Positions 2,509 through 49,560 of a DNA stretch of 64,000 nucleotides are shown piece after piece. Each line of letters opens with the position of its first letter. The stretch's first letter is position 1. The position numbers and the translations under genes are program-made. This DNA comes from an uncultured Candidatus Saccharibacteria bacterium. GTDB lineage: Bacteria; Patescibacteriota; Minisyncoccia; Phycocordibacterales; UBA5272. The notes beneath the pieces are model-generated. The model made no database searches. It was not told the DNA's origin and worked only from the letters and a program-made list of their open reading frames with translations. The DNA lies in the NCBI GenBank assembly GCA_964369115.1, contig CAYJED010000001.1, positions 67,732-131,731 of the forward strand, in the 5' to 3' direction.

Positions 2509-2634
2509 CTCTTGCCTCCGAAGGTGTAAATTGGAAAGATCAACAGGGTTATATATAAATATACAATATATTTTACAAGTAGTCAATTTTAACTCTTTTA
2601 TTCTTAAAGTAAGTATGTTATAACATGTATATCT

Positions 2635-3720: not shown

Positions 3721-3721
3721 A

Positions 3722-3760
3722 ATATAAAAATCAGCACAATATGTGCTGATTTTTATATTT
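3722..3760 (+). terminator. Rho-independent terminator after dnaJ
   Basis: aaaaatcagcaca/gtgctgattttt hairpin plus T-run. Confidence 0.5.
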
Positions 3761-3822
3761 AGGAAAATTTGATAGTATACTTTTTAAAGTAGATCTTTAC
3801 AGTAAAGATAAGGAGACTTCTC

Positions 3823-9749: not shown

Positions 9750-9756
9750 AAGAATA

Positions 9757-9797
9757 AAGATCACATCGGCCGCCTCGAAGAGGCGGCCTGTATTTTT
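9757..9797 (+). terminator. Rho-independent terminator
   Basis: ggccgcctcgaagaggcggcc perfect hairpin followed by tgtattttta. Confidence 0.55.
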
Positions 9798-9842
9798 ATA
9801 AACCTGGTTGTTCTTTGCCTATATCTCTGGTATATATAGAGT

Positions 9843-10982
9843 ATGAAGAATATTCTCATTAAAAGCTTTTTGACGCTAATTGTTACTGCGCTTATTTCTA
9901 CAAGTGCACCGGTTTTTGCTTTTGAGAAAGCTGTATGGATTCCATATTGGAGAAAGACAGATGGAGCAAGTAGTACGCTTCAAAACATTAAGTCTGTTAC
10001 TCAGATTAGTCCTTTTGCTTATGAGCTACAAAATGACGGCACTATTACAAATGCCCTTAAAATAGAAAGTGCTCCATGGCCAGATCTTATTAAAGAGGCA
10101 AAAAAGAATAAGGTAAAAATATATCCAAGTATTTTGTCATACCCAAACAATGAAACAGGTAAAAAAGCGGTACTTACACTTCTCTCTGACAAGAAAAAGC
10201 GACAAGCTCATGTGAAAGAAATTGCCGCACTTGTTAAGAAAAATAATTTTGATGGTATCGATATTGATTACGAGGCAAAGCTTGCAGAGACAAAGCCTTA
10301 CTTCGCATCTTTTTTAAGCGAACTTTCTACTGCTCTTAAAAAAGACAAGAAGAAACTTATTTGTACGATTGAGCCACGCACTCCACCAGATAGTCGTTAT
10401 GCAACCACTTCAAAAGAAGTGCTCTCTAAAGTTGAATATGCAAATGATTATAAAGCTATAGGTAAAGCTTGTGATGAGGTCCGTATTATGGCGTATGATC
10501 AGTCAACCGATGACGCAAAACTTGTAAACCAAAATAAGTTACAAGGTAAGCTCTATGCGCCTGTTGCTGATATTGAGTGGGTAAAGAAAGTGGTAACTGT
10601 TGCGCTTTGGGATATTCCAGCAAAGAAAATTTTAATTGGCGTGCCAACTTATGGGTATAAGTATGAAGTTATTAGAGGAACTTCAACAATTCAGTATAGG
10701 AGAATTGGTACAATGAATTATGAGTTTGCTGAAGAGCTTGCGCAAAGCCTTAAGATTACACCAACACGTAACAGTGCAGGAGAGCTTAGTTTTAGTTATT
10801 CATCAAATACAGATAGAGCGTATCCAAATGATACGAAGTTACGCGAGTACTTAGTGTGGTACTCAGATGCGGAAGCGATTAAAGATAAAGTAAAGCTTGC
10901 AAAGCTATATAAACTTGGAGGTGTCTCTGTGTTTCGTGTAGACGGAAGTCATGATCCAAGATTATTTGAGGTGCTGAAATAA
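9843..10982 (+). CDS. Secreted glycoside hydrolase family 18 (chitinase-like / peptidoglycan hydrolase-like)
   Basis: Signal peptide (MKNILIKSFLTLIVTALISTSAPVFA) and the GH18 catalytic motif DGIDIDYE. Confidence 0.75.
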   Translation: MKNILIKSFLTLIVTALISTSAPVFAFEKAVWIPYWRKTDGASSTLQNIKSVTQISPFAYELQNDGTITNALKIESAPWPDLIKEAKKNKVKIYPSILSYPNNETGKKAVLTLLSDKKKRQAHVKEIAALVKKNNFDGIDIDYEAKLAETKPYFASFLSELSTALKKDKKKLICTIEPRTPPDSRYATTSKEVLSKVEYANDYKAIGKACDEVRIMAYDQSTDDAKLVNQNKLQGKLYAPVADIEWVKKVVTVALWDIPAKKILIGVPTYGYKYEVIRGTSTIQYRRIGTMNYEFAEELAQSLKITPTRNSAGELSFSYSSNTDRAYPNDTKLREYLVWYSDAEAIKDKVKLAKLYKLGGVSVFRVDGSHDPRLFEVLK

Positions 10983-32821: not shown

Positions 32822-32893
32822 TCCGCGATAGCTCAGCGGTAGAGCAGCGCGCTGTTAACGCGTTGGTCGTAGGTTCGATCCCTACTCGCGGAG
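32822..32893 (+). tRNA. tRNA-Asn (anticodon GTT)
   Basis: Cloverleaf read by hand: acceptor tccgcga/tcgcgga, D arm gctc-agcggta-gagc, anticodon stem gcgcg/cgcgt with loop ctGTTaa, T arm gtagg-ttcgatc-cctac, discriminator G. No encoded CCA. Confidence 0.85.
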
Positions 32894-32895
32894 CA
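32877..32895 (+). repeat. 19-nt tRNA 3'-end core (gatccctactcgcggagca), copy 1 of a direct repeat (att-like)
   Basis: Identical 19-mers recur at 46886-46904 and 48309-48327. Degenerate copies lie at 49547-49560 and about 46727-46745. Confidence 0.8.
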
Positions 32896-34570
32896 TAGTA
32901 GAAAAAACATCTCTTTTAAGGGATGTTTTTTCATTTAACCCTTGTGTATCAAAGTTTAATTTAGGTTCGAACTCTGGAAAATTCACTCTCATACCTTTTA
33001 CTCCATCAATGAGTGCTTGTGTTGCTTTTGACCAAGTAATACAAAGGTTTTCTTCGTCCCAAACTAGGTTCGAACCCAGTGCAAAAAGCACCTTCCTTTT
33101 GTGATCTAATGACCCATTTTTAAGCACTTCTGCAATTGATTCAGAGAAACCGACAATCTCGTTTAACTTAGACATCCAGTCAATATCATCTGCATTTTTC
33201 TTCTTTGAGACATGCTTGTAACGCTGTTCAATATCAGCAAGGTCGGCATTGTATTCGTCGTTAGTTATTTGTTGATTACGAAGCATTGCACGTGCGTGAA
33301 GTTTCTCTTCGTTGTACTTCTTTTTATCTTCTTCAATATTTATTTCTGCAGTAAGAGCATCCTGAAAATCACCATCTTTAAGTTGATATAAATTCGCCTT
33401 TGACCAATCAGCAAGATCAGAGGATATAGGAAAGTCAGAAATCGCAACAGAAATCAGTTCCTTAGTTATGTTTTTCTCAGTAATAGACTTATACGACTGA
33501 CGAGACTTCTTCTTACGATTGTCGTAGTGATATGAATACTCAAGAAGTTTAGGAGAAACCATTTGAGGTATATCAGTGCCACATGTAGGACAAATGGTAG
33601 ACAGAGTACAAGAAAACTTACGCTTACAGTCACATATGACCTGTAATTTAACGTCCTGAGCCAAAACATGTCCCAGTGGAGACCTTACGAGACCAGAATA
33701 CAGAGTCTTGTGATCCTGAACTTTAGGAAGCGAATGCTGACCAAGTAGACGTAGAATCTTCACATGTTCAGACTCGGTTATAATACGAGGTAGAGATTTG
33801 TGAAGTTCGTAACGCTCACCACCATAAAAGAAGAAACCTGCATAAATAGGATCCTTGAGAATCTCATAGATACGAGACCTCATGATAGGCATACCACCAC
33901 TTCTACCTCGTGCGACAGTAGTAAGGCCAAGTTCACCAACTGCGTAGTCGTACAACTTACCACCAGTAAAACCTCCTTCAAGAAACTTTCTTAATAAAAG
34001 ATTTATTTTATTCAAACGAACCTTATCAACCTTCCATTTACGATTACCTTTCTCTTCAGACTTATCATTAAGAAAACCAAGAGTAGCAACACCGTGAGGA
34101 AAACCCAAAGATGCTTTCTTAGTCTGACCTCTTTTAACATTCACAGAAAGATCACGAACGAATTGATTAGCAGAACCAAACTCAACCGACATCAAAATAG
34201 TGTTCTCACTACTGTGATAAATCTTGTTGGGAGTAATAATGCACTTAATGGTCCCACGCTGTAGCATGTCCATTATAACCCCACCATCAATCATGTTACG
34301 GGCCAAGCGATCAATTTTCCAACATACAATGCTGTCATATTTACCATTCTTAATATCTTTAATCATTTGAGTAAAAACAGGTCTCTTGTTGGACATCTTA
34401 CCTGACTTAGACTCTTTGAGGACATCAAGAATCTTAATACCAAACTGACTCGCTATCTTTTTATTTTCATCAACTTGAGAGTCGATAGATAACATTTGCC
34501 TTTCTTCTGACTCAGAAGACTTACGATTGTAATTCACTGCTTTCAACTCACCATAATTTATTTCATACAT
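32882..34570 (-). CDS. Large serine recombinase (integrase)
   Basis: N-terminal resolvase catalytic domain (AVNYNRKSSESEERQMLSIDSQ; WKIDRLARN), recombinase domain, Cys-rich zinc ribbon (CDCKRKFSC...CPTCG) and coiled coil. The last codons overlap the tRNA 3' end. Confidence 0.85.
   Translation of the reverse strand: MYEINYGELKAVNYNRKSSESEERQMLSIDSQVDENKKIASQFGIKILDVLKESKSGKMSNKRPVFTQMIKDIKNGKYDSIVCWKIDRLARNMIDGGVIMDMLQRGTIKCIITPNKIYHSSENTILMSVEFGSANQFVRDLSVNVKRGQTKKASLGFPHGVATLGFLNDKSEEKGNRKWKVDKVRLNKINLLLRKFLEGGFTGGKLYDYAVGELGLTTVARGRSGGMPIMRSRIYEILKDPIYAGFFFYGGERYELHKSLPRIITESEHVKILRLLGQHSLPKVQDHKTLYSGLVRSPLGHVLAQDVKLQVICDCKRKFSCTLSTICPTCGTDIPQMVSPKLLEYSYHYDNRKKKSRQSYKSITEKNITKELISVAISDFPISSDLADWSKANLYQLKDGDFQDALTAEINIEEDKKKYNEEKLHARAMLRNQQITNDEYNADLADIEQRYKHVSKKKNADDIDWMSKLNEIVGFSESIAEVLKNGSLDHKRKVLFALGSNLVWDEENLCITWSKATQALIDGVKGMRVNFPEFEPKLNFDTQGLNEKTSLKRDVFSTMLRE
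32902..32931 (+). terminator. Terminator hairpin downstream of the tRNA
   Basis: aaaaaacatc / gatgtttttt perfect 10-bp stem with a 10-nt loop. Confidence 0.45.
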
Positions 34571-36504: not shown

Positions 36505-36904
36505 TCCAATTGATGTGCTGAAAGTAGAGACTGATATAACAGTAAGAAACTCGGTGAAAACAGATTCAAAAAAATTGAATAGTAATTTCTGTACAGAAAT
36601 CGAGACCGTATAAACACGGATAAAACTCGGTGAAATTAATAGTGGCTCTAATTGATATACAGAAAGTGAGACCATCTAAACTTGGAATAAACTTGGTAAA
36701 AAATTACAGTAACCCAATTGATATAGTGAAAGTGAGCCCAGTTATAACAGGAGAAAACTCGGTGAAATACTGAAAGTTTAGATTGAAATAACAAATTAAA
36801 ACTCGACAAAAACAAATTCATAAATATAGTAGCCAGAATTTCAGTACTGAAATTGACACCGTTAGAATACGGTGAAAACTCGGTGAAAATTACTTCTGTG
36901 ATCC
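36505..36904. repeat. Non-coding tandem array of about 5 structured repeat units (64-144 nt)
   Basis: The constant 14-mer AAACTCGGTGAAA occurs at 36548, 36624, 36757 and 36876, with variants at 36690 and 36799. Each unit has an [A/T-rich palindromic arm]-GAAAG-TGAGNCC head, e.g. perfect palindromes tttctgtacagaaa (36585-36598) and aatttcagtactgaaatt (36838-36855). Each unit also has a short hairpin with compensatory stem changes (ccgt/acgg, caccgt/acggtg, actg/cagt, cca/tgg). No ORF. Confidence 0.8.
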
Positions 36905-37364: not shown

Positions 37365-37393
37365 TTGACAAAGTTAAAGTAAAGGTATATACT
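37365..37393 (+). promoter_or_regulatory. Putative sigma70-type promoter upstream of the fic gene
   Basis: TTGACA (37365-37370), 17-nt spacer, TATACT (37388-37393). Confidence 0.45.
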
Positions 37394-37422: not shown

Positions 37423-38586
37423 ATGAACTTCAAATCAGGTACAAAATATAAGGCAGAAACACCAAGCGGACAGAAATATACCGCCTTTTTACCTGAACTT
37501 ATAAATAAAGAATTCACTTGGAAAGATCCGCAGATAGACCTACTACTTGAACAGGCCCGAGGTTGGATTGGTGAACTTAATGCCTATTCTAAATTAGTCC
37601 CTAACGTTGAATATTTTATTCAATCTCACGTAGCAAAAGAAGCCGAACAATCTAGTAGAATTGAGGGCACTAAAACTACTCTCGAAGAACTGTACCTAGA
37701 TATTGCAGACCTTACAGACAGTGAAAAAGTAAATGACCAAGAAGAAGTTAAGAACTACATTAAAGCACTCAATGAATCTGTAAAAGAATTAACTAGTGAA
37801 AGTGGCCTACCTTTGTGTACGAGACTTGTATGTGACACACATAAAATACTTCTATCGGGTGTTCGTGGGTATTCTCGCAATCCAGGTAAAATAAGAAAAA
37901 TACAAAATAAGATCGGAGGCGGACACGGCACTTTTGAAGATGCCGTGTTTATTCCACCGTCACCAGATAAAGTAGACGACCTGCTAAAGGATCTAGAAAA
38001 CTTTTGGAATAACAATGACTTACATATACCAAACCTTATAAAGACTGCATTGTCACACTACCAGTTTGAAACCATTCACCCATTCGAAGATGGTAACGGT
38101 CGTACAGGTCGCTTGATAATCATTCTTCAACTTATCTCATATAAGATGCTCGAGAAACCAACTCTCTACCTATCAGACTATTTCGAAAAGAATCGTCCCG
38201 CATACTACGATGCCCTATCAAGGGTACGTGAGTCACACGACATAGAGCACTGGATTAAGTTTTTCTTGATCGGAGTGGCCGACACTGCAAAGAAAGGTAA
38301 AGAAACACTAGAGAAGATAATCGACTTACGAATTAAGTACGAAACACTTATTAGTGGAGGTATCGGAGCAAAGAGACAAAAACTTGCACGAGAACTCATT
38401 GTGGCCCTCTTCGAGAAACCAGTGGTAACCGCAAAAGATGTTGAAAGCATATTAAATATTACTAAACCAACTGCCCACTCCCTCGTCGATGATCTAGAGC
38501 GAGTCGGAATACTAAAAGAAAAAACAGGGTTGTCTCGTAACAGAATATTCACCCTACACGAGTACTTAGCATTATTTAATAACTAA
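37423..38586 (+). CDS. Fic/DOC family protein (putative AMPylating toxin) with N-terminal inhibitory motif
   Basis: Canonical Fic motif HPFEDGNGRTGR and an upstream SxxxEG-type inhibitory helix motif (SSRIEGT). The C-terminal part is HTH-like. Confidence 0.85.
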   Translation: MNFKSGTKYKAETPSGQKYTAFLPELINKEFTWKDPQIDLLLEQARGWIGELNAYSKLVPNVEYFIQSHVAKEAEQSSRIEGTKTTLEELYLDIADLTDSEKVNDQEEVKNYIKALNESVKELTSESGLPLCTRLVCDTHKILLSGVRGYSRNPGKIRKIQNKIGGGHGTFEDAVFIPPSPDKVDDLLKDLENFWNNNDLHIPNLIKTALSHYQFETIHPFEDGNGRTGRLIIILQLISYKMLEKPTLYLSDYFEKNRPAYYDALSRVRESHDIEHWIKFFLIGVADTAKKGKETLEKIIDLRIKYETLISGGIGAKRQKLARELIVALFEKPVVTAKDVESILNITKPTAHSLVDDLERVGILKEKTGLSRNRIFTLHEYLALFNN

Positions 38587-38592
38587 AAACAT

Positions 38593-40575
38593 ATGGAAAA
38601 CTTCAATCAAAAAACTTCAATGATCTGGAACGTAGCCGACATACTACGTGGTGGATGGAAACAACACGAATACCAAGATGTAATCTTGCCACTTGTGGTG
38701 CTTAAGAGACTGGACTCTATTCTTACAGATACCAAACAAGCAGTACTCAACAAAAACGATGAGTATCAAGGAAAAATCAATGATTTAGACCCAATCCTAA
38801 AACGTACTTCAAAAGTAGAGTTCTACAACATATCAGCATATGACTTCAAACTACTTCTTAGTGATCCAAAGAATATTGCAAAAAACTTCAGACTCTACAT
38901 AACTGGATTCAGTAAGAATATTCAAGATATATTCGAGAAATTCAACTTCAATGTGCAACTAGAAAGACTGGAGGGTGGTGACATGTTGTTCTTGGTAATT
39001 CAAGAGTTAAACAAGATAGACCTACACCCATCAAAAGTAGATAACTATCAAATGGGACACATCTTCGAAGAACTCCTTCGTAAGTTCTCTGAAATGTCTA
39101 ACGAGACCGCTGGAGAGCACTACACACCAAGAGATGTAATCAATACAATGGTTGAGATACTCTTGTCTCCAGATGCAAAGGAACTAAAAAAGCCACATGT
39201 TATCAAAAAAATATACGATCCTGCTTGTGGTACAGGTGGAATGCTTACAACTGCAAAAGATTACATTATCGACAAAGTAAACAAAGAAGCAGATATATTC
39301 CTGTACGGTCAAGAACTAAACTCAGTCACATACGCTATAGCAAAATCAGACATCCTTATAAAGGGTGAAAATCCAGACTTGATACGTGGAGGAGAAAAGG
39401 ATCACTCACTTGCAAGTACGCTTTCCAACGATCAATTCTTTGGAGAGGTATTTGACTATGGAATTTCAAATCCTCCATACGGAGTAGACTGGAAGAAAGA
39501 TAAAGATGCAGTAGATCGTGAAGCATCACGTGGATACGCAGGCAGATTCGGAGCAGGTACGCCTCGTATATCAGATGGTCAGTTGCTATTCATGGAGCAT
39601 CTTGTCTCAAAAATGAAACCAGAAAGTGATGGAGGTTCTCGTATTGCAGTAGTTCATAATGGGTCACCTCTCTTCACTGGTGATGCAGGTAGCGGAGAAA
39701 GTGAAATACGTAGATGGATACTTGAGAAAGATTTACTAGAAACAATAGTGGCACTCCCTGATCAACTTTTCTATAACACAGGTATCAATACATACCTTTG
39801 GTTCGTATCAAATAGAAAATCAAAAGAAAGAAAAGGTAAAGTACAACTCATAGATGCACGTAACTTCTACAAGAAGATGCGTAAGAGTCTCGGCAATAAA
39901 CGCCACGAGATAGATACAGATTCTCAAAAGAAAATATTTGATCTATACAATTCATTTGAAGAAAATGAGCATTCAAAGATATTCAATACTACCGACTTTG
40001 CATACCGACAAATACAAATTGAAAGACCTCTAAAACTTTCATTTGATTTCAACGATGAAAAAATAAAAGAACTGCTAGTGCTATTTTCTACAGATACAGA
40101 TAAATCAGGTATCAAGTCGTTCATAGAATCCTTCAAGGGAGAAACTTATAACGACAGAAAGAAACTTGAGGATATTATAACCAAGCGTTCAAAAGAGTTC
40201 ATCACTGGAAAACTTGGAGCGGGAGTAATAAAGAAGTTTATTTTACTCTCTGGGACCAAAGATGAGAATGCAGAAACCTGTGTGGACAAAGATGGTAACC
40301 CTGAAGCCGATGGTGACTTACGTGATCACGAGAATGTGCCCTACGGCACCGACGTGAAGGAATACTTCGACAAAGAAGTAAAACCTTATATTAGTGATGC
40401 ATGGATCAATGAATCGGTCCGAGACCACAAGGATAATCAGGTGGGTGTAGTTGGCTACGAAATACCCTTCACAAGATACTTCTATAAGTATGAAGCACCG
40501 AGAAGTCTTGAAGCAATAGAAAAAGATATTGAAGAGGTCGAAAATGAACTTCTAACCTTGCTTAAGCAATTATAA
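38593..40575 (+). CDS. hsdM: Type I restriction-modification system methyltransferase subunit
   Basis: HsdM N-terminal domain, SAM-binding region and NPPYG catalytic motif (ISNPPYGVDW). 660 aa with a C-terminal extension. Confidence 0.9.
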   Translation: MENFNQKTSMIWNVADILRGGWKQHEYQDVILPLVVLKRLDSILTDTKQAVLNKNDEYQGKINDLDPILKRTSKVEFYNISAYDFKLLLSDPKNIAKNFRLYITGFSKNIQDIFEKFNFNVQLERLEGGDMLFLVIQELNKIDLHPSKVDNYQMGHIFEELLRKFSEMSNETAGEHYTPRDVINTMVEILLSPDAKELKKPHVIKKIYDPACGTGGMLTTAKDYIIDKVNKEADIFLYGQELNSVTYAIAKSDILIKGENPDLIRGGEKDHSLASTLSNDQFFGEVFDYGISNPPYGVDWKKDKDAVDREASRGYAGRFGAGTPRISDGQLLFMEHLVSKMKPESDGGSRIAVVHNGSPLFTGDAGSGESEIRRWILEKDLLETIVALPDQLFYNTGINTYLWFVSNRKSKERKGKVQLIDARNFYKKMRKSLGNKRHEIDTDSQKKIFDLYNSFEENEHSKIFNTTDFAYRQIQIERPLKLSFDFNDEKIKELLVLFSTDTDKSGIKSFIESFKGETYNDRKKLEDIITKRSKEFITGKLGAGVIKKFILLSGTKDENAETCVDKDGNPEADGDLRDHENVPYGTDVKEYFDKEVKPYISDAWINESVRDHKDNQVGVVGYEIPFTRYFYKYEAPRSLEAIEKDIEEVENELLTLLKQL

Positions 40576-40579
40576 TTAT

Positions 40580-41782
40580 ATGAAAGAAGAAACAAAAAAT
40601 ATAATATGCCCTGAATGCGGAACATCAATATCAATCGATGATGCTTTAACGCACCAGATTGAAAACAAACTCAAGAAAGAATATGAGGACAAAGAAAAAT
40701 CAATAAGAGAATCTATTGAAAAAGAATCTTCAAAGAAACTTGAGCAAGATAAGGTAGAAATGGAAAAGAAATTAAAAGCACAGGTCCTAAAAGATACTGA
40801 GGCAGAAAAGGTAGCATCCAATGAAAAAAATAAACTCCTTGAAGAACAACTTGCTGATAAAGAGGCAAAACTAAAAGAAGCACGTCAGAATGAAGTTGCT
40901 CTCATAAAAGAGAAGCAGAAACTAAAGGATGATCAGGAGGCATTCGAATTAGAAAAGACACGCCAACTTGCAGAGGAAAGAAAGCAAATAGAAGAAGATG
41001 CTTCAAGGAAAGCCACTGATGCAAAGCAATCTGAAATCGATCAACTTAACAAGAAACTATCTGATGCTACAAAAGCAAAAGATGAATTAGCAAGAAAACT
41101 AGAACAAGGGTCACAGCAGACCCAAGGCGAGGTCCAAGAACTGGCCCTAGAAGAACTCCTTAAGGAGGCATTCATCTATGACGACGTATCTCCTGTTGGA
41201 AAAGGTGTTACTGGTGCAGACGTTATACAAACTGTCAAAACAAAGTCTGGTGTTGAATGCGGGAAAATAATCTGGGAATCAAAGAAAACTAAAACATGGA
41301 CCGAGGGATGGATACAGAAATTGAAAGATGACCAGAGACAGGTTAAAGCAGATCTTGCGGTTATTGTTACATCTGCTATGCCTCAAGGAACTAGTGGTAT
41401 CACCCAGAAAGATGGTGTATGGATTTGTGATATCAAATTGGCTCTATCAATAGCAACACTACTGAGACACTCACTTGAGACAGTAGCCAGAGAAAAGTCT
41501 ATGTCTGTAGGTAAGAATGAGAAAGTTGAAATCCTATACGCATACCTCACAGGCACAGAGTTCAAACAAAGAATCGAAGTGATAGTAGAGACATTTTCTA
41601 GTATGAAAACTTCTCTTGATAAAGAGAAACTTTACTTCACCAAAACTTGGGCAGAAAAAGAGAAACAAATAGATCGAGTTATACAAAATACTGTAGGCAT
41701 CTACGGTGATCTTAGCGGTGTCGTTCAATTGCAAAAAATTGAGTCACTTGAATTACCAAGCGGAGTAGATAAAGAAGAATAA
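40580..41782 (+). CDS. Zn-ribbon + long coiled-coil + C-terminal putative PD-(D/E)xK-like domain protein (DUF2130-like) embedded in the R-M operon
   Basis: CPECGTSI zinc ribbon, about 200 aa of K/E-rich coiled coil, and a C-terminal GADVIQTV...KIIWESKKTK segment compatible with D...ExK nuclease core motifs. Confidence 0.55.
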   Translation: MKEETKNIICPECGTSISIDDALTHQIENKLKKEYEDKEKSIRESIEKESSKKLEQDKVEMEKKLKAQVLKDTEAEKVASNEKNKLLEEQLADKEAKLKEARQNEVALIKEKQKLKDDQEAFELEKTRQLAEERKQIEEDASRKATDAKQSEIDQLNKKLSDATKAKDELARKLEQGSQQTQGEVQELALEELLKEAFIYDDVSPVGKGVTGADVIQTVKTKSGVECGKIIWESKKTKTWTEGWIQKLKDDQRQVKADLAVIVTSAMPQGTSGITQKDGVWICDIKLALSIATLLRHSLETVAREKSMSVGKNEKVEILYAYLTGTEFKQRIEVIVETFSSMKTSLDKEKLYFTKTWAEKEKQIDRVIQNTVGIYGDLSGVVQLQKIESLELPSGVDKEE

Positions 41783-41783
41783 T

Positions 41784-43070
41784 ATGCAAACACTCAAACT
41801 CACAAAAAAATATGAGACATACCCTGAATACAAAGATTCGGGTGTTGAGTGGTTGGGTATGATTCCGAAAGATTGGAAATACAAAAAACTAAAATCATTT
41901 TTCTCACTAAGTAATGAAAAAGTTGCTGAGAATCCAGAAATCACAACCATTCTTTCTGTCTCAGGTTACAGAGGTGTAGAAATTAGAAAAAATACTGAGA
42001 CTTTTGATGGACAAATGCCATCAGAAAATGTTGATGCATATAGAATTGTAAGAAAAAACCAACTAGTAGTTAATACTATGTGGCTTAACTTTACTGGACT
42101 GGGTGTATCAAATTATGAAGGGTACGTTAGTCCTGCATATAGGGCGTACAACATATCGAAAGAAATGCTCCCAGAATATGTAAATCATTTAATGAGATCT
42201 ACTGCTTATGTTCAAAAATATTCTAGTCTATTATACGGAATGCGACCAAATTCTCTTCAGGTGAAGCCGTATGATTTCGAAAAGATTGAAATATTGTATC
42301 CAGATATAAAAGAACAAAAACGTATTTCAATGTACCTTGATAAAAAAACTACTCTCATTGATCAGATAATAGAAAGAAAAGAAGCACTAATTGTTATCTT
42401 ACGGGAAAAAAGAAATGCTACGATAAGCAAGCAAATAGTTGAAAATACTGGAAAAGATTGGAAAGTTAAAAAAATTAAGCACCTAGTTAAATCAATTGAA
42501 TCTGGAATATGGGGAGACAATCCATTATCTAATAAAGATGACATTAAGTGTTTACGTATTGCTGATTTTGATTATGACAACTTCAGTTACTCTACAGTTG
42601 AAACAATAAGGAATAATTCAAACCTACAGGAAAGAAAGGTTCTCAGAAAAGGAGATATTCTTATGGAAAAATCTGGTGGCGGTGAAAAGACTCCAGTCGG
42701 TCGTGCGATATTGTTTTCCTCTGACGAAAGAATGGTTTGTGCAAACTTTATAGATAAAGTACGTGTTGATAAAGAAAAAATACTCCCAGAGTTCTTAGTC
42801 CTATACCTATCGGTGCTTTATGCAGGTAGAGTAAACACAAAATATATTAAACAAAACACTGGTATCCAGAATATGGATATTAAAGAATACTTTGGAGAGA
42901 ATATTTCCTACCCTGATATTAAAACCCAGAAAAATTTAACGGAATTTGTTAACGCTAAGATTAGTGCTTTTAACAAAGCAATTTCTGATGTAGAAAAAAC
43001 CATTGAAACATTAAAGGAGTTCAAGACTTCTCTTATTTCCAATGCAGTAACAGGAAAAATCAAAGTATAA
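41784..43070 (+). CDS. hsdS: Type I R-M specificity subunit
   Basis: Two target-recognition-domain halves separated and followed by conserved coiled-coil regions. 428 aa. Placed between hsdM and hsdR. Confidence 0.85.
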   Translation: MQTLKLTKKYETYPEYKDSGVEWLGMIPKDWKYKKLKSFFSLSNEKVAENPEITTILSVSGYRGVEIRKNTETFDGQMPSENVDAYRIVRKNQLVVNTMWLNFTGLGVSNYEGYVSPAYRAYNISKEMLPEYVNHLMRSTAYVQKYSSLLYGMRPNSLQVKPYDFEKIEILYPDIKEQKRISMYLDKKTTLIDQIIERKEALIVILREKRNATISKQIVENTGKDWKVKKIKHLVKSIESGIWGDNPLSNKDDIKCLRIADFDYDNFSYSTVETIRNNSNLQERKVLRKGDILMEKSGGGEKTPVGRAILFSSDERMVCANFIDKVRVDKEKILPEFLVLYLSVLYAGRVNTKYIKQNTGIQNMDIKEYFGENISYPDIKTQKNLTEFVNAKISAFNKAISDVEKTIETLKEFKTSLISNAVTGKIKV

Positions 43071-43074
43071 ATAT

Positions 43075-43707
43075 ATGGCAAAAATTGAGATAAACAAAAC
43101 ACACATAGACGCACTAAAGAAACAGAAAAGGACTGTGGGTCTTTTGCAATTTCAAAATAGAGACGATCAAAACTTTTCAAAATGGTATTCACTTACAGAA
43201 AACTTGATAATTAAATCTTTTGGACAAAAGTCTAATCAACTTGGGCAACTTACATCCCTATATCATAAAATGCCAAGAACCGAAGACTTAAAGTATGAAT
43301 TTGATAGAGGTAGATTGGATATAAAAGATTGTAAAGAAAAATTAAAAGACTTGCTTGAAAACTTAATAGCCGAACTGGAATTGGATCTTGCTTCTGAAAA
43401 TGAAGACACAAAAGATAAGCCAACCAAAAAAGGTACATCTATAAAGATCAAAAATAGTCAAACGCAAACGCAAACCATAAATATTACACTGACAATAGAT
43501 CAAATAATTAATAGAATTAAAGAAACAGAATCAGACCCACAAAGAGTCTCGGAAGCAGAAGTAAAATTAAAAGAATTAGATTCTGAATTAAAATCAAAAT
43601 CTCCAGTATGGTCGAAAGTAAAAGACGCTCTAATATGGTTACTGAATTTCGGAAGAGACACATTTTTACAGGTCTTACCCATTATCTTAGAAAGATACAA
43701 ACAGTAA
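43075..43707 (+). CDS. Hypothetical protein (210 aa) between hsdS and hsdR
   Basis: ORF with tight spacing to its neighbours (4-5 nt gaps). Predicted helical; no known motifs. Confidence 0.5.
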   Translation: MAKIEINKTHIDALKKQKRTVGLLQFQNRDDQNFSKWYSLTENLIIKSFGQKSNQLGQLTSLYHKMPRTEDLKYEFDRGRLDIKDCKEKLKDLLENLIAELELDLASENEDTKDKPTKKGTSIKIKNSQTQTQTINITLTIDQIINRIKETESDPQRVSEAEVKLKELDSELKSKSPVWSKVKDALIWLLNFGRDTFLQVLPIILERYKQ

Positions 43708-43708
43708 T

Positions 43709-46690
43709 ATGAAAACACTAACAAACACAAAAGAATCAGGATTCGAAGAGTTCATACAAAATGAACTTGAGAAGATGCATGGATACAAAATCCGCTCATC
43801 ACATCTCTATGACAAGAAACTCTGTATGGATACAGAACTTGTTATTGAGTTCATAGAAAAAACCCAACCTCAAGCATGGGAGAAACTTTCTGAACAGTAT
43901 GGAGAGAACGTAAAGGCAAAAGTTCTGCAGAGAATAGACGAGGAAGTAGACTCACGTGGGATACTCTCAGTATTTCGTGAGGGCATCACAGATAGAGGTG
44001 TGCGTTTCAAACTTGCATTCTTACAACCACAGAATGATTTGAATCCAGAACTAATGCAGGAATATGCTGGGAATATTTTGAGCGTGACTCGCCAAGTGAA
44101 GTACAGTGAGCAGAATGAGAACTCGCTCGACGTGGTCCTATTTATAAATGGATTACCAGTATTCACTCTCGAACTTAAGAATCAATTCACAGGTCAGAAT
44201 GTTATACACGCTATCCATCAATACAAAACAAGTCGAGACCAAAAGGAGAAACTTTTGTCGTTTAAGCGATGCATCACACACTTTGCAGTTGATACAGATC
44301 AAGTGTATATGACAACTCGTCTTACTGGACTCACTACGTACTTTTTACCTTTCAACAAAGGAGACAAAGGTTCATCTGGTAACCCGACAGCACCTGAGGG
44401 TAAATACAAAACTCATTACTTGTGGGAAGAGATTTTCTCAAAGGATATGGTGTTTGATTTGATTGGAAATTTCATACAAGATGTCACTGAAGAAAAAGTA
44501 GATAAGAATGGAAAGAAGCGAAAAGAAGAGAAACTTATCTTCCCTCGATATCATCAACTAGATACTGTGAACCGAATACTAACTCATGTAAAAGCAAATG
44601 GGACTGGTAATAACTACCTCATACAACACAGTGCAGGATCAGGGAAAAGTAATACTATCGCTTGGACCGCACACCGTTTGGCGGAATTACACGATCAAAG
44701 CAATAAACCGATTTTTGATGGGGTTATAGTGGTTACCGACCGAAGAGTGCTAGATAGCCAGTTGTCGGCCACTGTGGACAGTTTTAGCCAAGTTGGAGGG
44801 GTCGTAAAGCACGTAGAGAGTTCTGCTGACCTCAAAGGAGCACTTGAGGGTGGAGTTAAGATCATTACGAGTACTCTACAGAAATTCCCAGTTATCGTTA
44901 GTTCTATAGAAAAGACTGAGGGTAGAAAATTTGCTGTTATCGTTGATGAAGCACACTCGTCACAGTCAGGAGAAAGTTCAGCGGATTTGAGACAGGTGCT
45001 TACTCTTGATGATGCTGTAACGCAAGAAGAAAAAGAAGAGAAGTTATTTAAGACAGTCGAAGATCTTCTTAATGAAAGAATGAAATCAAGAAAGGTTACT
45101 TCACCGAACCTGAGTTTTTTTGCATTTACGGCTACACCAAAACAAAAGACAATTGAACTCTTTGGAACTCAAGATGTGGTTACAGGTAAATTCATCCCTT
45201 TTTCTCTTTATTCAATGAAACAAGCGATTGAAGAAAAGTTCATCTTAGATGTGCTTAAAAACTACACAACCTACGAAACATACTTCGGTCTCTTAAAGAA
45301 GATTGAAGATGACCCAGAGTTCAATAAGAAAAAGGCACAGAGACTACTAATTGGATATGTAGAAAGAAATGAACATGCGATCTTGAAAAAGGTAGCAATC
45401 ATGACTGAGCATTTCGAACAGAAGATCTCAAAACTAATTGGAGGTAAAGCCAAGGCAATGATAGTAACTAAATCACGTTTACATGCCGTGAGATATAAAC
45501 TTGCCTTCGATGCTTACTTAAAGGAAAAAGGTTATGAGCATAAATCCCTTGTTGCTTTCTCTGGTAGTGTTGTTGATCCTGATACAAAACTTGAATATAC
45601 AGAAACTCAAATGAATCATATTCCAGAAAGCCAAACTGCTGAAGAATTCAAGAAAGATGAGTACAAATTCTTAATTGTTGCAGAGAAGTTTCAGACTGGA
45701 TTTGATCAACCGTTACTATCTGCAATGTATGTAGATAAGAAATTAGGAGGCGTAAATGCTGTGCAGACTCTTTCTCGTTTGAACCGCACAACATACGGAA
45801 AAGAAGATACTTTTGTACTAGACTTCTTTAACAAGACAGACGATATCAAGGAAGCATTCCAACCGTACTATACTACTACCGTACTTTCTGAAGCGACAAA
45901 TCCTAACTTATTACATAACCTCGAAAGAGAAGTTCGTGGGTTCAAGTTGTTTACCGACTTTGAGTTGAATGGATTTGTGGAAGAACTCTTTGGAGGTGCA
46001 ACCCCAGACAAACTAAATCACATAATAGATGTGATAGTTGAAAGAGCATTATCCGAAAAAGATGCGGAAGAAATTGAAAGTTTCAAGTCAGTAATTTATG
46101 ACTACTTGAAGAAGTATTCATTTATCTCACAGATCGTAACCTTTGAGGACCCTCAACTAGAGAAGTTGTATATATTCCTAAAGTTCTTGATAAAGAAACT
46201 TCCAAGACGAGAAAACCCTCTGCCAGTAGAGGTCCTTGAGGCAATTGATATGGAAACATACAAGATAGATAAAAAAGGAGAAACTGATGTGATGCTTGAA
46301 AATAAAGATGGAGAACTAGACCCTATGACTGGTGGAGGTGGTAAAAAAACTGGAGGAGATGAAGAGGAAGATGCATTATCTAAGATAATTAAGGAGATAA
46401 ATGAACGATACGGAACAAACTTTAGCGATAATGACAAAGTTATACTTAATGACCTAAGTGCAAAACTACTAAAGAGTACAATTCTTCAAGGTTCAATACA
46501 AAACAACAGTAAGGATTCTGCGAAGTTGAAGTTCGATCAACTCTTCCAAGACGAACTAGTTGGGATGCTTGATAACCACTTTAACCTCTACCAGAAACTG
46601 GACCAAAGCCCAGAATTAAAGAAATTCGTACAGGAGAAAGTCTTTGAACATGTGGTAAAGAAGATGAACACCAATAAAACAAAGGATTAA
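43709..46690 (+). CDS. hsdR: Type I restriction enzyme R subunit
   Basis: N-terminal nuclease domain, SF2 helicase motifs (HSAGSGKSNT Walker A; VIVDEAHSSQ DEAH box), C-terminal domain. 993 aa. Confidence 0.9.
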   Translation: MKTLTNTKESGFEEFIQNELEKMHGYKIRSSHLYDKKLCMDTELVIEFIEKTQPQAWEKLSEQYGENVKAKVLQRIDEEVDSRGILSVFREGITDRGVRFKLAFLQPQNDLNPELMQEYAGNILSVTRQVKYSEQNENSLDVVLFINGLPVFTLELKNQFTGQNVIHAIHQYKTSRDQKEKLLSFKRCITHFAVDTDQVYMTTRLTGLTTYFLPFNKGDKGSSGNPTAPEGKYKTHYLWEEIFSKDMVFDLIGNFIQDVTEEKVDKNGKKRKEEKLIFPRYHQLDTVNRILTHVKANGTGNNYLIQHSAGSGKSNTIAWTAHRLAELHDQSNKPIFDGVIVVTDRRVLDSQLSATVDSFSQVGGVVKHVESSADLKGALEGGVKIITSTLQKFPVIVSSIEKTEGRKFAVIVDEAHSSQSGESSADLRQVLTLDDAVTQEEKEEKLFKTVEDLLNERMKSRKVTSPNLSFFAFTATPKQKTIELFGTQDVVTGKFIPFSLYSMKQAIEEKFILDVLKNYTTYETYFGLLKKIEDDPEFNKKKAQRLLIGYVERNEHAILKKVAIMTEHFEQKISKLIGGKAKAMIVTKSRLHAVRYKLAFDAYLKEKGYEHKSLVAFSGSVVDPDTKLEYTETQMNHIPESQTAEEFKKDEYKFLIVAEKFQTGFDQPLLSAMYVDKKLGGVNAVQTLSRLNRTTYGKEDTFVLDFFNKTDDIKEAFQPYYTTTVLSEATNPNLLHNLEREVRGFKLFTDFELNGFVEELFGGATPDKLNHIIDVIVERALSEKDAEEIESFKSVIYDYLKKYSFISQIVTFEDPQLEKLYIFLKFLIKKLPRRENPLPVEVLEAIDMETYKIDKKGETDVMLENKDGELDPMTGGGGKKTGGDEEEDALSKIIKEINERYGTNFSDNDKVILNDLSAKLLKSTILQGSIQNNSKDSAKLKFDQLFQDELVGMLDNHFNLYQKLDQSPELKKFVQEKVFEHVVKKMNTNKTKD

Positions 46691-46763: not shown

Positions 46764-46808
46764 CATGCCTGAGGATTTTACTTTTTGTTTCAATCGAAGC
46801 AAGTGACC
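46764..46808 (+). terminator. Strong rho-independent terminator after hsdR
   Basis: aaagtaaaatcctcagg-tttcatg-cctgaggattttacttt perfect 17-bp stem followed by ttgtttc. Confidence 0.65.
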
Positions 46809-46904
46809 TGCGTCACTTGCGTGTAGGGTCGAATAGGGCTCGCGAATCTGCTTCGAGGAGTTTACGACGAGGCAGATTTGTGAGAGATCCCTACTCGCGG
46901 AGCA
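46809..46904 (+). repeat. Structured arm plus 19-nt tRNA-3' core, copy A (att-like junction)
   Basis: gcaagtgac-ctgc-gtcacttgc hairpin, then aatctgcttcg...cgaggcagatt hairpin, ending in gatccctactcgcggagca (46886-46904). Confidence 0.7.
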
Positions 46905-46908
46905 AAGG

Positions 46909-46937
46909 TTGACAATAACCAAATTATAATGTATAAT
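46909..46937 (+). promoter_or_regulatory. Consensus sigma70-type promoter
   Basis: TTGACA (46909-46914), 17 nt, TATAAT (46932-46937). Confidence 0.5.
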
Positions 46938-46967
46938 ATGGTTATTGTTCTATTTTAGGAGTTTCGT

Positions 46968-47180
46968 ATGTATATGGGAAAGTTTGTTTGCGGAAATCCT
47001 GTTTGCAAAAAAGTTTTTGCTGGCAGTGACGATGGATTCTCTGTGAGTGAGTGTCCGCACTGTGGTGCTGGCGCAAACTCTGTTCACCCTGAACCGGAAC
47101 GCACTGACCGAGGTATTGAGCAAGTTGACTACGATGCTCGTAAGGAGCTGTACCAACAGCAACGTTTCGCTGGTTGGTAA
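46968..47180 (+). CDS. Small zinc-ribbon protein (70 aa)
   Basis: AGGAG SD. CGNPVCKK ... CPHCG two CxxC pairs. Confidence 0.5.
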   Translation: MYMGKFVCGNPVCKKVFAGSDDGFSVSECPHCGAGANSVHPEPERTDRGIEQVDYDARKELYQQQRFAGW

Positions 47181-47183
47181 ATT

Positions 47184-47220
47184 ACCGCCCGAGCAAAAAA
47201 ACTGCTTCGGTGGTTTTTTT
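47184..47220 (+). terminator. Terminator hairpin (paralogous to 48664-48702)
   Basis: accgcccgagca-aaaaaac-tgcttcggtgg followed by ttttttt. Confidence 0.5.
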
Positions 47221-47500
47221 GCTTTTATACTCCACTTTCTTCAATAATCGCCTGTCGAACATCTTCCCAGGTTCGGAGCCAAGAGAGACGAGACGCCATG
47301 AAAATGGCGTTTTGTCCTTTTATACCAAGGTAATTAGTAGGTTCTAACCTTTTCATTATCTCCTTTTGCGCTTTTAATTCGTTTTCAATCAAAATAAATG
47401 GATGCGCCTTCTCAATTATGAGCTTTTTATCTTTTAAAGTTAGGTTCGAGCCAATTGTTGAAAATATCGTTCGCTTCTTTTTGAGGTCTCCTGTATTGAA

Positions 47501-48115
47501 ATGATGGAAAGCAAAGGCACAAAAATTAAAGGCCCTCTCTGTAGGGTTGTCTACGGTTCTCTTGCTATCATGGTCATTTCAGTTATTTACAAGATATTTT
47601 TTGATCCAAACTGGCAAGTTCTTTTCTCTGCATCTGTCGCATACGCAAGTTTATTTAATAGGACTATTACTCAACATCTCCCGAAACTCTTCTCTAAGAG
47701 TGATGGTAAAGTTGCCACGACTGAATATTTAATTGATAAAGTTGTACTAGAAAGTATAAATGTATGTAACGCAAATGGTTTATTCTTTAATCAGGCAGTA
47801 TTGGTGTCTGAAGATTCATCACAAATAATTACAATCCCGAACGAGAGAATAAACGATATAGACTCATATCTTAATGAGTTAAAATTAAGCGATTTTAAAC
47901 ATAACAACATTGCTATCGCTATGGCAGGCTCATATGATTGGAAACAATTCTTGTGGAGTGGTGTAAAGCATTACGAGGCATTAATAATTGAAGTCTACTT
48001 ATCTAAAGGAGTGAAAAAGTATAGTTTTTGCCAAACTATTGATAATGATTCGGGCTTATACAAGCCAAGTGAACGAGGGTTAATATATCAAGGTTCTGTA
48101 GCAATCAAAGGGTAA
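47501..48115 (+). CDS. Hypothetical protein (204 aa)
   Basis: ORF with an N-terminal hydrophobic segment. No family recognised. Weak SD. Confidence 0.4.
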   Translation: MMESKGTKIKGPLCRVVYGSLAIMVISVIYKIFFDPNWQVLFSASVAYASLFNRTITQHLPKLFSKSDGKVATTEYLIDKVVLESINVCNANGLFFNQAVLVSEDSSQIITIPNERINDIDSYLNELKLSDFKHNNIAIAMAGSYDWKQFLWSGVKHYEALIIEVYLSKGVKKYSFCQTIDNDSGLYKPSERGLIYQGSVAIKG

Positions 48116-48219
48116 GTGAAAGATTTGCTCCAATCAAAAGTTCTGAACCTGTGTACCGTTCGGAGCATTAATACAAAAAGCCACAAGTTCATTCTTGTGG
48201 CTTTTTGTATTAACTTTTC

Positions 48220-48327
48220 AACGAAGCAAGTGACCTACTTCACTTGCATGTAAGATCGAATACGGGGTCGAGGTTCTACTTCGAGCAAAGCGAGGTAGAA
48301 TCGTGACCGATCCCTACTCGCGGAGCA
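48220..48327 (+). repeat. Structured arm plus 19-nt tRNA-3' core, copy B
   Basis: gcaagtga-cctact-tcacttgc hairpin, ctacttcg...cgaggtag hairpin, ggggtcg...cgatccc pairing, ending in gatccctactcgcggagca (48309-48327). Confidence 0.7.
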
Positions 48328-48330
48328 CTA

Positions 48331-48359
48331 TTGACAAAAGCATTATATATTGTTATACT
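48331..48359 (+). promoter_or_regulatory. Consensus sigma70-type promoter (paralogue of 46909-46937)
   Basis: TTGACA (48331-48336), 17 nt, TATACT (48354-48359). The downstream 5'UTR is similar to the one at 46938-46967. Confidence 0.5.
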
Positions 48360-48395
48360 GCTTTTGTTCTTTCATCAGTATACAGGAGTTACAAA

Positions 48396-48665
48396 ATGTT
48401 TCGTTTCAGTTCGAAGGTCAAACCGCCTTACAACAACAGAAAAGAACATGCAAAATGGAAGAAAAAGTTCGCTTTCTTTCCGGTCGTTATCAGCAGAACA
48501 GGAACCACAGAAACTAAGGTCCTATTTTGCTTCTACGAGGAGCGTGTCTACTGCGACCCCATGGGTGCTTCTGTGTATGGTGGTGATACGGTAACCGAAC
48601 GTCGTCTGCCGGGTTCAACAGAAGTCTGTGAAGTTGATCGACATGATGGTGACCCATTGCTCTAA
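48396..48665 (+). CDS. Small hypothetical protein (about 89 aa)
   Basis: AGGAG SD 7 nt upstream of ATG 48396. Lys-rich N-terminus, C-terminal Cys residues. Confidence 0.45.
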   Translation: MFRFSSKVKPPYNNRKEHAKWKKKFAFFPVVISRTGTTETKVLFCFYEERVYCDPMGASVYGGDTVTERRLPGSTEVCEVDRHDGDPLL

Positions 48666-48702
48666 CCGCCAAGCAAGAAACTGCTTCGGCGGTTTCTTGT
48701 TT
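48664..48702 (+). terminator. Terminator hairpin (paralogous to 47184-47220)
   Basis: accgccaagca-agaaac-tgcttcggcgg followed by tttcttgtttt. Confidence 0.5.
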
Positions 48703-48810
48703 TACACTTCATCCCTCAAACTTTTCATATTCATCATCCCCACCCTCATACCCGAGTACTCCCTCATCAGTTCGGTAAAGAAGGTTTGTGGGGAGCACAT
48801 AAAATCTTAA

Positions 48811-48839
48811 GTCCACCATTTCGGTGGACTTTTGATTTT
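48811..48839 (+). terminator. Hairpin plus T-run
   Basis: gtccacc-atttc-ggtggac followed by ttttgatttt. Confidence 0.4.
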
Positions 48840-48897
48840 AGTGCTCAGTGAGAGTAAAGCCAACTGCTTGGCTTTTCTTTTTGATATACTTATATAA

Positions 48898-49429
48898 TGA
48901 ATACTTACGTGGCTCTACTCCGTGGAATAAATGTAGGAGGTAATAACAAAATTGAAATGACAAAACTCAAAGTCCTTTTTGAGTCACTCGGCTACACGAA
49001 TGTTGTTACTTACATCAATTCAGGCAACGTAATATTTGAGACAAGAAAAAAGATGTCAGTCGGCTGACAAGTGAAATTGAAAAAGGTATAAAAAAGAAAT
49101 TCAAGCTAGATATTCCAGTTGTACTACGTACACAACAAAGTATTGAGAAAGTGTGTAAGAACATCCCACCAGATTGGGTAAATGATAAAGATAATAAAAC
49201 TGATGTAATGTTTCTGTGTGATGAGTTTGCAAGTAAGAAAACTCTAAAAATAATTTCTACTAACCCAAAAATTGATTCGTTACTGTATGTTGATGGGGCT
49301 ATTGTTTGGCATCTAAAAAAGAAGGATTACGAAAAGAGTAAAATGAATGACATTATCGGTACAGAAGTATACAAAAATATGACTATACGAAACATCAATA
49401 CTGTTCGGAAACTTGCAACATTGATGTAA
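48898..49429 (+). pseudogene. DUF1697-family gene disrupted by a -1 frameshift in an A6 run
   Basis: N-terminal part MNTYVALLRGINVGGNNKIEMTKLKVLFESLGYTNVVTYINSGNVIFETRKK stops at TGA 49065-49067. The downstream frame (track ORF 49151..49429, open from about 49063) continues LTSEIEKGIKKKFKLDIPVVLRTQQSIEK... One extra A in aaaaaa (49046-49051) would fuse them. Confidence 0.7.
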
Positions 49430-49440
49430 AAGAAACTATC

Positions 49441-49560
49441 TCTTTTTCTGTACTCACCCAGTCCAAAGTTCTGAACTCGTCCACTAGAGGGATCGAATAC
49501 GGGGTCGAGATTATACTTCGAGCGAAGCGAGGTAGAATCATGACCCGACCCCTACTCGTA
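49441..49560 (+). repeat. Structured arm plus degenerate tRNA-3' core, copy C
   Basis: gggatcgaatacggggtcgag...cgaggtagaatcatgacccgacccctactcgta. ggggtcg/cgacccc pairing. The core is degenerate at 3 positions. Confidence 0.55.

Follow-up and report, generated by a model that had tools for sequence, protein, structure and literature searches.

The 64,000-nucleotide (nt) stretch of DNA analyzed here (the window; contig CAYJED010000001.1 of assembly GCA_964369115.1, from an uncultured Candidatus Saccharibacteria bacterium) contains a type I restriction-modification (R-M) operon in which two additional genes are interleaved with hsdM, hsdS and hsdR. Insert 1, located in the junction between hsdM and hsdS (M-S junction), codes for a 400-amino acid (aa) protein of the DUF2130 family, and insert 2, located in the junction between hsdS and hsdR (S-R junction), codes for a 210-aa protein designated p210. 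A previous survey mined type I R-M, BREX and DISARM systems for embedded genes and derived 145 PDC candidates; 96.7% of the embedded genes shared the orientation of the system around them (Payne et al., bioRxiv 10.1101/2024.01.29.577857). The locus is a fresh example of this published embedding pattern, with two uncharacterized cargo families. The operon and its flanking signals are as follows (positions are those of the window).

37365-37393, + strand: sigma-70-like promoter, TTGACA-17-TATACT, 11/12 (consensus match only)
37423-38586, + strand: SoFic-like Fic/DOC gene, the first gene of the operon; 387 aa, Fic_N, Fic and a C-terminal winged helix-turn-helix
38593-40575, + strand: hsdM, type I methyltransferase subunit, 660 aa
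40580-41782, + strand: insert 1 (M-S junction), DUF2130 protein, 400 aa
41784-43070, + strand: hsdS, specificity subunit, 428 aa, two target-recognition domains
43075-43707, + strand: insert 2 (S-R junction), p210, 210 aa
43709-46690, + strand: hsdR, restriction/translocase subunit, 993 aa
46737-46791, + strand: intrinsic-terminator hairpin with a 25-bp stem flanked by an A-run and a U-run (from folding energy)

An earlier note on this DNA, made from the sequence, had described five tightly spaced genes in this order on a single strand, and the map of open reading frames (ORFs) agrees exactly, with spacers of 4, 1, 4 and 1 nt from hsdM to hsdR. The five genes stand, but the unit extends beyond the positions 38593-46690 given in the earlier note. 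The Fic gene, which that note had missed, lies 6 nt upstream of hsdM, making six co-directional genes, and the promoter and the terminator lie outside that interval. The promoter-like site ends approximately 30 nt 5' of the Fic start codon, and no terminator-like site was found on the + strand between this promoter and the end of hsdR. The hairpin past hsdR has a folding energy of -37.9 kcal/mol (z -11.5), and none of 200 shuffled sequences was equally stable. Judging from spacing and consensus signals, the six genes from Fic to hsdR are apparently co-transcribed.

The Hsd subunits could be readily assigned. HsdM contains HsdM_N (PF12161, E 3.2e-21) and N6_Mtase (PF02384, E 1.7e-60) domains in Pfam and matches the PADLOC model MTase_I over its full length (E 1.7e-258). 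HsdS matches PADLOC Specificity_I (E 2.3e-70), with the models covering either two stretches or residues 10-428, and its residues 224-398 correspond to Pfam Methylase_S. HsdR is composed of HSDR_N, SWI2_SNF2, ResIII and T1R_D3-like domains (Pfam), and its match to TIGR00348 (E 4.3e-62) is under the curated cut-off of NCBI. All three subunits are full-length and apparently intact, and together they represent a complete type I R-M system. The translation of the Fic gene has the motif HPFEDGNGR as well as Fic_N and Fic domains in Pfam, and it matches PADLOC SoFic over residues 18-386 (E 1.9e-114). Since its NCBIfam equivalog score is 174.7 against a cut-off of 550, we refer to this protein as SoFic-like and not as an equivalog. 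Fic genes also occur at the head of sister operons, where the proteins are 56-61% identical to that of the window.

The operon is located in an integrative island of ~14.0 kb, of the serine recombinase type, at a tRNA-Asn gene. Its components are listed below.

32822-32894, + strand: tRNA-Asn (GTT), ARAGORN; Rfam 70.1 bits
32877-32895, + strand: left copy of the att-like 19-nt repeat GATCCCTACTCGCGGAGCA, at the 3' end of tRNA-Asn
32882-34570, - strand: large serine recombinase, putative island integrase, 562 aa (Pfam Resolvase, E 2.7e-18)
46886-46904, + strand: right copy of the repeat, just past the terminator
48309-48327: third copy of the repeat, exact match

The 3' end of the recombinase gene abuts tRNA-Asn, and the 3' end of this tRNA gene is the left att-like copy, which identifies tRNA-Asn as the integration site. 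Three exact matches to the repeat were found against none expected. Because recombinase, tRNA and repeats lie around the operon, the R-M operon is the main cargo of the island. The same island is present in several metagenome assemblies, and the recombinase gene recurs in their contigs.

Comparison with sister operons on the same scaffold revealed how the two junctions behave. In the following list, identities are to the HsdM and HsdR of the window.

Window: HsdM 100%, HsdR 100%; M-S junction, DUF2130; S-R junction, p210
L005: HsdM 71%, HsdR 70%; M-S junction, no insert; S-R junction, p210
L011: HsdM 68%, HsdR 66%; M-S junction, no insert; S-R junction, p210
L023: HsdM 74%, HsdR 77%; M-S junction, DUF2130; S-R junction, 357-aa protein of no family (9452-10525)
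L026: HsdM 78%, HsdR 77%; M-S junction, DUF2130; S-R junction, PDC-S54, E 8e-83 (9496-10737)
L091: hsdM off the contig, HsdR 75%; M-S junction, DUF2130; S-R junction, 401-aa and 146-aa proteins of no family (2516-4158)

Since the contents of the junctions vary on one scaffold, the two slots hold cassettes that are independent of each other and are exchanged horizontally. The earlier note had treated the two embedded genes as one module, and their independent assortment in these five sister operons is inconsistent with that view. As far as gene content and sequence can tell, DUF2130 and p210 are neither a two-gene module, nor obligate subunits, nor split Hsd domains, and neither insert is required by the R-M enzyme, as sister operons have one insert or neither. 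Apart from the operons aligned here, NYN fills the M-S junction and p210 the S-R junction in the JGI locus of P0020. In L029, a DUF2130 protein 72% identical to that of the window occurs alongside HsdM and HsdR that share only 27% identity with their window counterparts.

Our preferred interpretation, to which we assign a probability of roughly 0.6, is that the locus is a mobile island of ~14 kb whose type I operon carries two independent insert cassettes as extra defense layers. Operon structure, island, domain content and cassette exchange are shown by the sequence data, and the roles given next are proposals. The two internal junctions of the type I system serve as cargo slots, and both inserts would probably be co-expressed with the R-M system as added layers against phages or other mobile elements. 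DUF2130 would most plausibly be a DNA-cutting effector, acting alone or with neighboring ATPases; the latter is proposed because AAA_15/21, OLD-type and AAA_13 ATPases adjoin DUF2130 in other loci. p210 would most plausibly be an adaptor, sensor or regulator that binds the N6-adenine methyltransferase/specificity module, a role suggested by the lack of an effector domain together with the tendency of its relatives to stay near methyltransferase/specificity modules of several architectures.

Profile searches, which the earlier note had proposed, placed the 400-aa protein in DUF2130 (PF09903, E 9.8e-63; 212.2 bits against a cut-off of 26.7; profile positions 2-252 of 255). This family, also known as COG4487, has been filed in the PD-(D/E)XK superfamily as "function unknown" (Steczkiewicz et al. 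2012, PMC3424549). Insert 1 is a clear full-length member that shows no difference at the family level, and what the present locus adds is the cassette and defense context. A 20-sequence alignment revealed invariant residues E184 and E187 (QGEVQE), D214 (GADV), and E233 and K235 (WESK). In an AlphaFold2 model, a single helix at residues 19-174 (a coiled coil of ~155 residues) is followed by an alpha-beta-beta-beta-alpha-beta core, an order that agrees with a restriction-endonuclease-like fold; this model, based on a shallow alignment, is poor (predicted local distance difference test score, pLDDT, 66; predicted template modeling score 0.29). A Foldseek search of the PDB with the model gave nothing at E <= 0.001, and a sequence-profile search of the PDB gave no relevant match. 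As the structure searches came back empty, the nuclease assignment rests on the Pfam family, the published clan placement and the invariant motifs. No functional study of DUF2130 or COG4487 was found in the literature searched.

The description of this protein as "Zn-ribbon/coiled-coil" in the earlier note holds for the coiled coil and only in part for the Zn-ribbon. The N-terminus has a single CxxC (C10 and C13) and no second ligand pair there, and the other two cysteines are inside the nuclease domain; a canonical Zn-ribbon was therefore rejected. Two protomers in a parallel coiled coil may share a Zn site. We infer a dimeric protein in which a coiled-coil stalk carries an N-terminal CxxC knuckle and C-terminal PD-(D/E)XK heads. 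A similar overall architecture is found in RmuC, a nuclease limiting recombination, in which a long N-terminal coiled coil precedes a PD-(D/E)XK domain. Kinship with RmuC was considered but found no support, as hhalign against E. coli RmuC gave a probability of 0.1%, although this is a weak negative with a shallow profile (effective number of sequences 1.7).

DUF2130 relatives were detected in 477 species genomes, and we sampled the loci of the best 80 of the 477, of which 74 were counted, considering neighbors within three genes on either side. The neighbors are listed below.

HsdM/HsdS-like: 20/74 loci
AAA_15/AAA_21 ATPase: 11/74 loci
HsdR-like: 8/74 loci
AAA_13 ATPase: 6/74 loci
Fic: 6/74 loci
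RhuM: 4/74 loci
DUF4011-MTES_1575 helicase-nuclease: 4/74 loci
GmrSD+HNH: 2/74 loci

At least one defense-type neighbor was present in 38/74 loci. This result and the distribution of p210 described below, obtained from the neighborhood survey that the earlier note had called for, indicate largely restriction and defense contexts for the homologues. Consistent embedding in hsd operons was not observed for DUF2130, which has an hsd-like neighbor in only 22/74 loci and is elsewhere found with OLD/Gabija-like genes, AAA_13, GmrSD, RhuM or large helicases. For example, on an Aliarcobacter plasmid it is followed by an OLD-type ATP-dependent endonuclease and a UvrD helicase (Gabija-like), on a Chryseobacterium plasmid it heads an hsd operon, and on a Bradyrhizobium plasmid it follows RelE/HTH.

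These contexts bear on the idea that the inserts are hitchhikers with no defense role, residing in R-M operons that put up with insertions, a "genomic sink" as discussed by Payne et al. (bioRxiv 10.1101/2024.01.29.577857). DUF2130 would then be a nuclease for recombination or maintenance of mobile elements, and p210 an element-specific protein with an unrelated function. This idea is favored by the finding of DUF2130 on 45 plasmids, most of them large and rhizobial, and by the serine recombinases close to it in 4 loci. Its unusual conservation (66-91% identity) across lineages of metagenome-assembled genomes (MAGs), which suggests a constrained cellular function, and the 36/74 loci with no recognizable defense-type neighbor point the same way. 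However, the neighbors that can be recognized are mostly defense genes (hsd, OLD/Gabija-like, AAA_13, GmrSD, RhuM, DUF4011-MTES_1575 and Fic), the inserts are co-directional and tightly spaced within the sampled hsd operons, p210 occurs almost only inside R-M systems (14 + 2 of 16 contexts), and both inserts are rare or absent in viral contigs. We consider the hitchhiker explanation improbable.

An origin of the inserts from phages or plasmids was also considered and rejected. p210 is absent from PLSDB plasmids and IMG/VR contigs, only 5 IMG/VR contigs contain DUF2130, and neither gene is typical of phages. Seven Helicobacter heilmannii phage records match DUF2130, and they do so only over residues 158-380, mainly the nuclease domain.

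The closest relatives of the DUF2130 protein are 87-91% identical and come from MAGs labeled Candidatus Saccharibacteria, and Patescibacteria account for most of the relatives, so that the host is probably a member of the candidate phyla radiation. Identities of 65-91% extend across MAGs labeled Saccharibacteria, Paceibacterota, Yonathbacteria, Moranbacteria and even Gammaproteobacteria. In L029 and L033, DUF2130 is 66-72% identical to the window copy, with HsdM and HsdR only 25-28% identical. That DUF2130 outpaces its carrier operons in conservation suggests recent horizontal spread together with strong constraint.

An ABC-type ATPase gene is often directly downstream of DUF2130 (L054 8279-9442 and 10 other loci, L107 7274-11192 and L077 8284-10011), and in L077 it codes for an OLD-family ATPase-TOPRIM protein. 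The DUF2130 nuclease and an ATPase could thus be a recurrent pairing.

With regard to the second insert, the earlier note had reported no known domain. This stands for Pfam and NCBIfam, in which p210 has no family match, but not for PADLOC, in which it has a weak partial match to PDC-S35 (E 7.5e-07, residues 9-122, 264-position model). A word-indexed search detected 25 p210 relatives and an exhaustive profile search 177 representative clusters, with the C-terminal module being the most widely shared part in the latter. Within the superfamily, 21/44 members match PDC-S35 (best E 2.3e-13) and 8/44 match PDC-M14B, so p210 appears to be distantly related to these two PADLOC candidates. Both were defined by embedding, the same situation as that of p210, and PDCs are themselves untested predictions. 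No functional study of PDC-S35 was found, and no description of it occurs in the text of Payne et al. or in the part of the supplements that was available. The notion of an undescribed R-M-embedded module in the earlier note had therefore been anticipated by the survey of Payne et al., to whose candidates p210 is distantly related.

The AlphaFold2 model of p210 (pLDDT 76.5) is all-helical, with two four-helix modules (residues 8-111 and 137-209) connected by a disordered linker, and the predicted isoelectric point of the protein is 8.9. No catalytic motif or recognizable effector domain was found in it. A membrane effector acting through the hydrophobic C-terminus was rejected, as the 19-residue Kyte-Doolittle maximum of 1.25 is too low for a transmembrane helix. 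Frameshift-split Hsd domains, raised in the earlier note as a possible refutation, were likewise rejected: in BLASTP, p210 is unlike HsdR and HsdM (best E 7.3 and 1.9, respectively; HsdS was not directly compared), and DUF2130 is a separate Pfam family.

Close relatives of p210 (at least 47% identity) occur in 16 distinct contexts, 14 of which are type I operons. Wherever the downstream gene is visible in these operons, p210 is directly upstream of hsdR, with the exception of L019, in which a DUF3800 gene lies between them; the spacers around the specificity gene and hsdR are 1-9 nt or a short overlap. In L015, the hsdR beside p210 is from a different, divergent HsdR family. In the other two contexts (L009 1489-10442 and L014 532-9302), the p210 homologue closes a two-gene restriction system in which an SNF2 or PLD-SNF2 helicase is paired with a type IIG/ISP-like methyltransferase-target recognition domain protein of ~1,100 aa, and in L009 it is adjoined by an AbiP2-type defense reverse transcriptase. 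Five contexts of distant relatives were sampled: one is convergent to hsdS-hsdM, a second, carried by another serine-recombinase island, is convergent to a fused M+S methyltransferase, one is beside a caspase-like peptidase, and two are on short uninformative contigs.

p210 may also be viewed as an accessory that helps to regulate or assemble ATP-dependent R-M enzymes and is no defense gene itself, for example one that delays or tempers HsdR loading while a mobile R-M system, newly arrived in a naive host, sets up methylation. That it nearly always follows the specificity gene and immediately precedes hsdR, even with two different HsdR families, is in line with such a function, and so are its non-enzymatic, helical character and its presence on serine-recombinase islands (the window, L112 and L113). 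Moreover, its divergence tracks that of the scaffold: p210 identity is 80% against 95% for HsdR in L007, and 51-53% against 66-70% in L005 and L011. On the other hand, operons with 77% identical HsdR carry PDC-S54 or an unrelated 357-aa gene instead of p210, L091 carries the 401-aa gene, and this swapping of unrelated genes in sister operons means that the R-M enzyme does not need p210. Furthermore, p210 in L009 and L014 ends the helicase-methyltransferase pair and does not precede a translocase gene, and distant relatives are on the opposite strand. On balance, this explanation seems rather unlikely to us. A more far-reaching possibility, which we hold to be quite unlikely, is that the p210 superfamily is a dedicated accessory of N6-adenine methyltransferase/specificity modules, in which the conserved C-terminal module docks on the methyltransferase cores of type I, type IIG and ISP-like systems and the variable N-terminal module senses attack (e.g., by DNA-mimic anti-restriction proteins) or gates translocase loading. 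If true, the superfamily would be a new class of R-M-associated sensor/regulator across restriction architectures.

PrrC and RloC, precedents for an effector restrained by an R-M complex, are ABC-ATPase (AAA_13) and anticodon-nuclease proteins. PrrC/EcoprrI resembles the window in having an extra gene among the hsd genes that is co-directional and apparently co-transcribed, and it provides the classical model of a second-line effector. By analogy, one or both inserts could be latent toxic effectors that are held by the Hsd complex and freed by phage anti-restriction, resulting in abortive infection. Besides the precedent itself, this model can draw on the tight embedding and apparent co-transcription of both inserts, on the intact predicted nuclease site of DUF2130, which could be the toxic effector, and on the p210 relatives that adjoin methyltransferase/specificity modules even when convergent, as a monitor of the module would. 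Yet neither insert resembles PrrC or RloC, and no AAA_13 or anticodon-nuclease match was found for them in Pfam, PADLOC and NCBIfam, in agreement with the earlier note; AAA_13 proteins occur only as DUF2130 neighbors in other loci. According to Payne et al. (bioRxiv 10.1101/2024.01.29.577857), PrrC nearly always sits within hsd operons, whereas 52/74 DUF2130 loci have no hsd-like neighbor, so DUF2130 cannot generally depend on the Hsd complex for restraint. p210 has no recognizable effector domain, transmembrane segment or catalytic motif, and each of the two inserts is missing from some sister operons on the same scaffold. A guard of this type is possible, especially for p210, but unsupported, and it is unlikely for DUF2130, which is usually outside hsd operons; we regard the model as a whole as doubtful.

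Two other known loci are close to the window in organization. In the Vibrio cholerae island VPI-2, the two tgvAB genes interrupt a working type I operon and provide an independent, complementary type IV defense (PMC11411939). As in the window, two genes of previously unknown function are located within a type I operon on a genomic island, but TgvAB is a pair of the GmrSD family that works together, whereas the inserts of the window occupy separate junctions, assort independently and have other domains. GmrSD+HNH genes adjoin DUF2130 or p210 operons elsewhere. The rlo ("R-linked ORF") genes of Campylobacter jejuni are also located among hsd genes, with a position conserved across strains (PMC2928727). 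They are, like the inserts, uncharacterized genes interleaved in hsd loci, with the difference that RloA is described as an ATPase.

Several points weigh against the interpretation of the two inserts as cassettes of extra defense. The defense role of DUF2130 and p210, as well as any coupling of theirs to the R-M complex, is something we infer from context. The nuclease fold of DUF2130 has no structural confirmation, with a pLDDT of 40-70 in that domain and no significant Foldseek hit, and PADLOC v2 has no model for this family. Its sampled loci, being the best 80 of 477, are biased to close relatives of the query and to Patescibacteria, and 36/74 of them are without a recognizable defense-type neighbor. 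The match of p210 to PDC-S35 is weak and covers the N-terminal half only, the PDC families being untested candidates, and a contribution to the regulation or structure of the R-M enzyme, instead of an independent defense function, would also account for its near-fixed place ahead of hsdR. Finally, co-transcription is deduced from spacing and consensus signals only, and the sigma-70 consensus may not hold for promoters of candidate-phyla bacteria.

The locus is a clear natural case in which cargo is exchanged combinatorially at two fixed junctions, and it supports "guilt by embedding" as a means of finding defense genes, although the gain is incremental because the general embedding principle has already been published. 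DUF2130 is a widespread family of predicted coiled-coil nucleases that appears neither in PADLOC v2 nor in the defense literature searched, and p210 represents a small helical family that tracks methyltransferase/specificity modules across restriction architectures. Activity of either insert, if it exists, would add to the known effectors or R-M accessories. The case also stems from candidate-phyla bacteria, in which defense biology is poorly known.

Some further observations concern the cargo of related operons. Other genes in the S-R junction of related or similar type I operons include the DUF3800 gene of L019 (203-937) and a gene in L033 (9323-10048), and such uncharacterized S-R cargo represents further embedded candidates. 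A DUF4357 (RAMA-like) gene is directly downstream of hsdR in the p210-bearing sister operons L005 (8961-9791) and L104 (11588-12436). PDDEXK_1 is directly downstream of hsdR in the P0020 locus and, in L102, follows intervening GmrSD+HNH and small HNH genes. A third cargo slot may exist downstream of hsdR. In L100 (4353-7812) and L101 (5329-11930), the hsd genes were called as many short fragments, and p210 looks intact, as does Fic in L101; in L008 (136-753), the p210 homologue is split into two ORFs. Either indel errors of the assemblies or genuine decay may account for these broken genes.

Additional repeats occur in and beyond the island. Between a 91-aa ORF and the Fic promoter there is the following array.

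36508-36888, + strand: five degenerate direct repeats of ~52 nt with a spacing of 66-121 nt (repeat search; Tandem Repeats Finder period 66, 2.7 copies)

Each of these repeats ends in AAACTCGGTGAAA, and they look like iterons or an operator array. Past the right att copy (attR), positions 46788-49545 consist of approximately three tandem modules of ~1.3-1.4 kb with common repeated segments (46788-46838 and 48215-48265; 48254-48308 and 49491-49545; terminator-like 47196-47219 and 48675-48698; 48130-48148 and 49458-49476). The third GATCCCTACTCGCGGAGCA copy suggests a second, tandem islet of ~1.4 kb or its remnant, and the modules may have arisen as small elements accumulated one after another, or decayed, at a tRNA-Asn hotspot. 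Directly past attR, a perfect 12/12 sigma-70 consensus (TTGACA-17-TATAAT, 46909-46937) precedes a 70-aa ORF (46968-47180), whose two Cys pairs (CGNPVC ... CPHC) may form a zinc ribbon.

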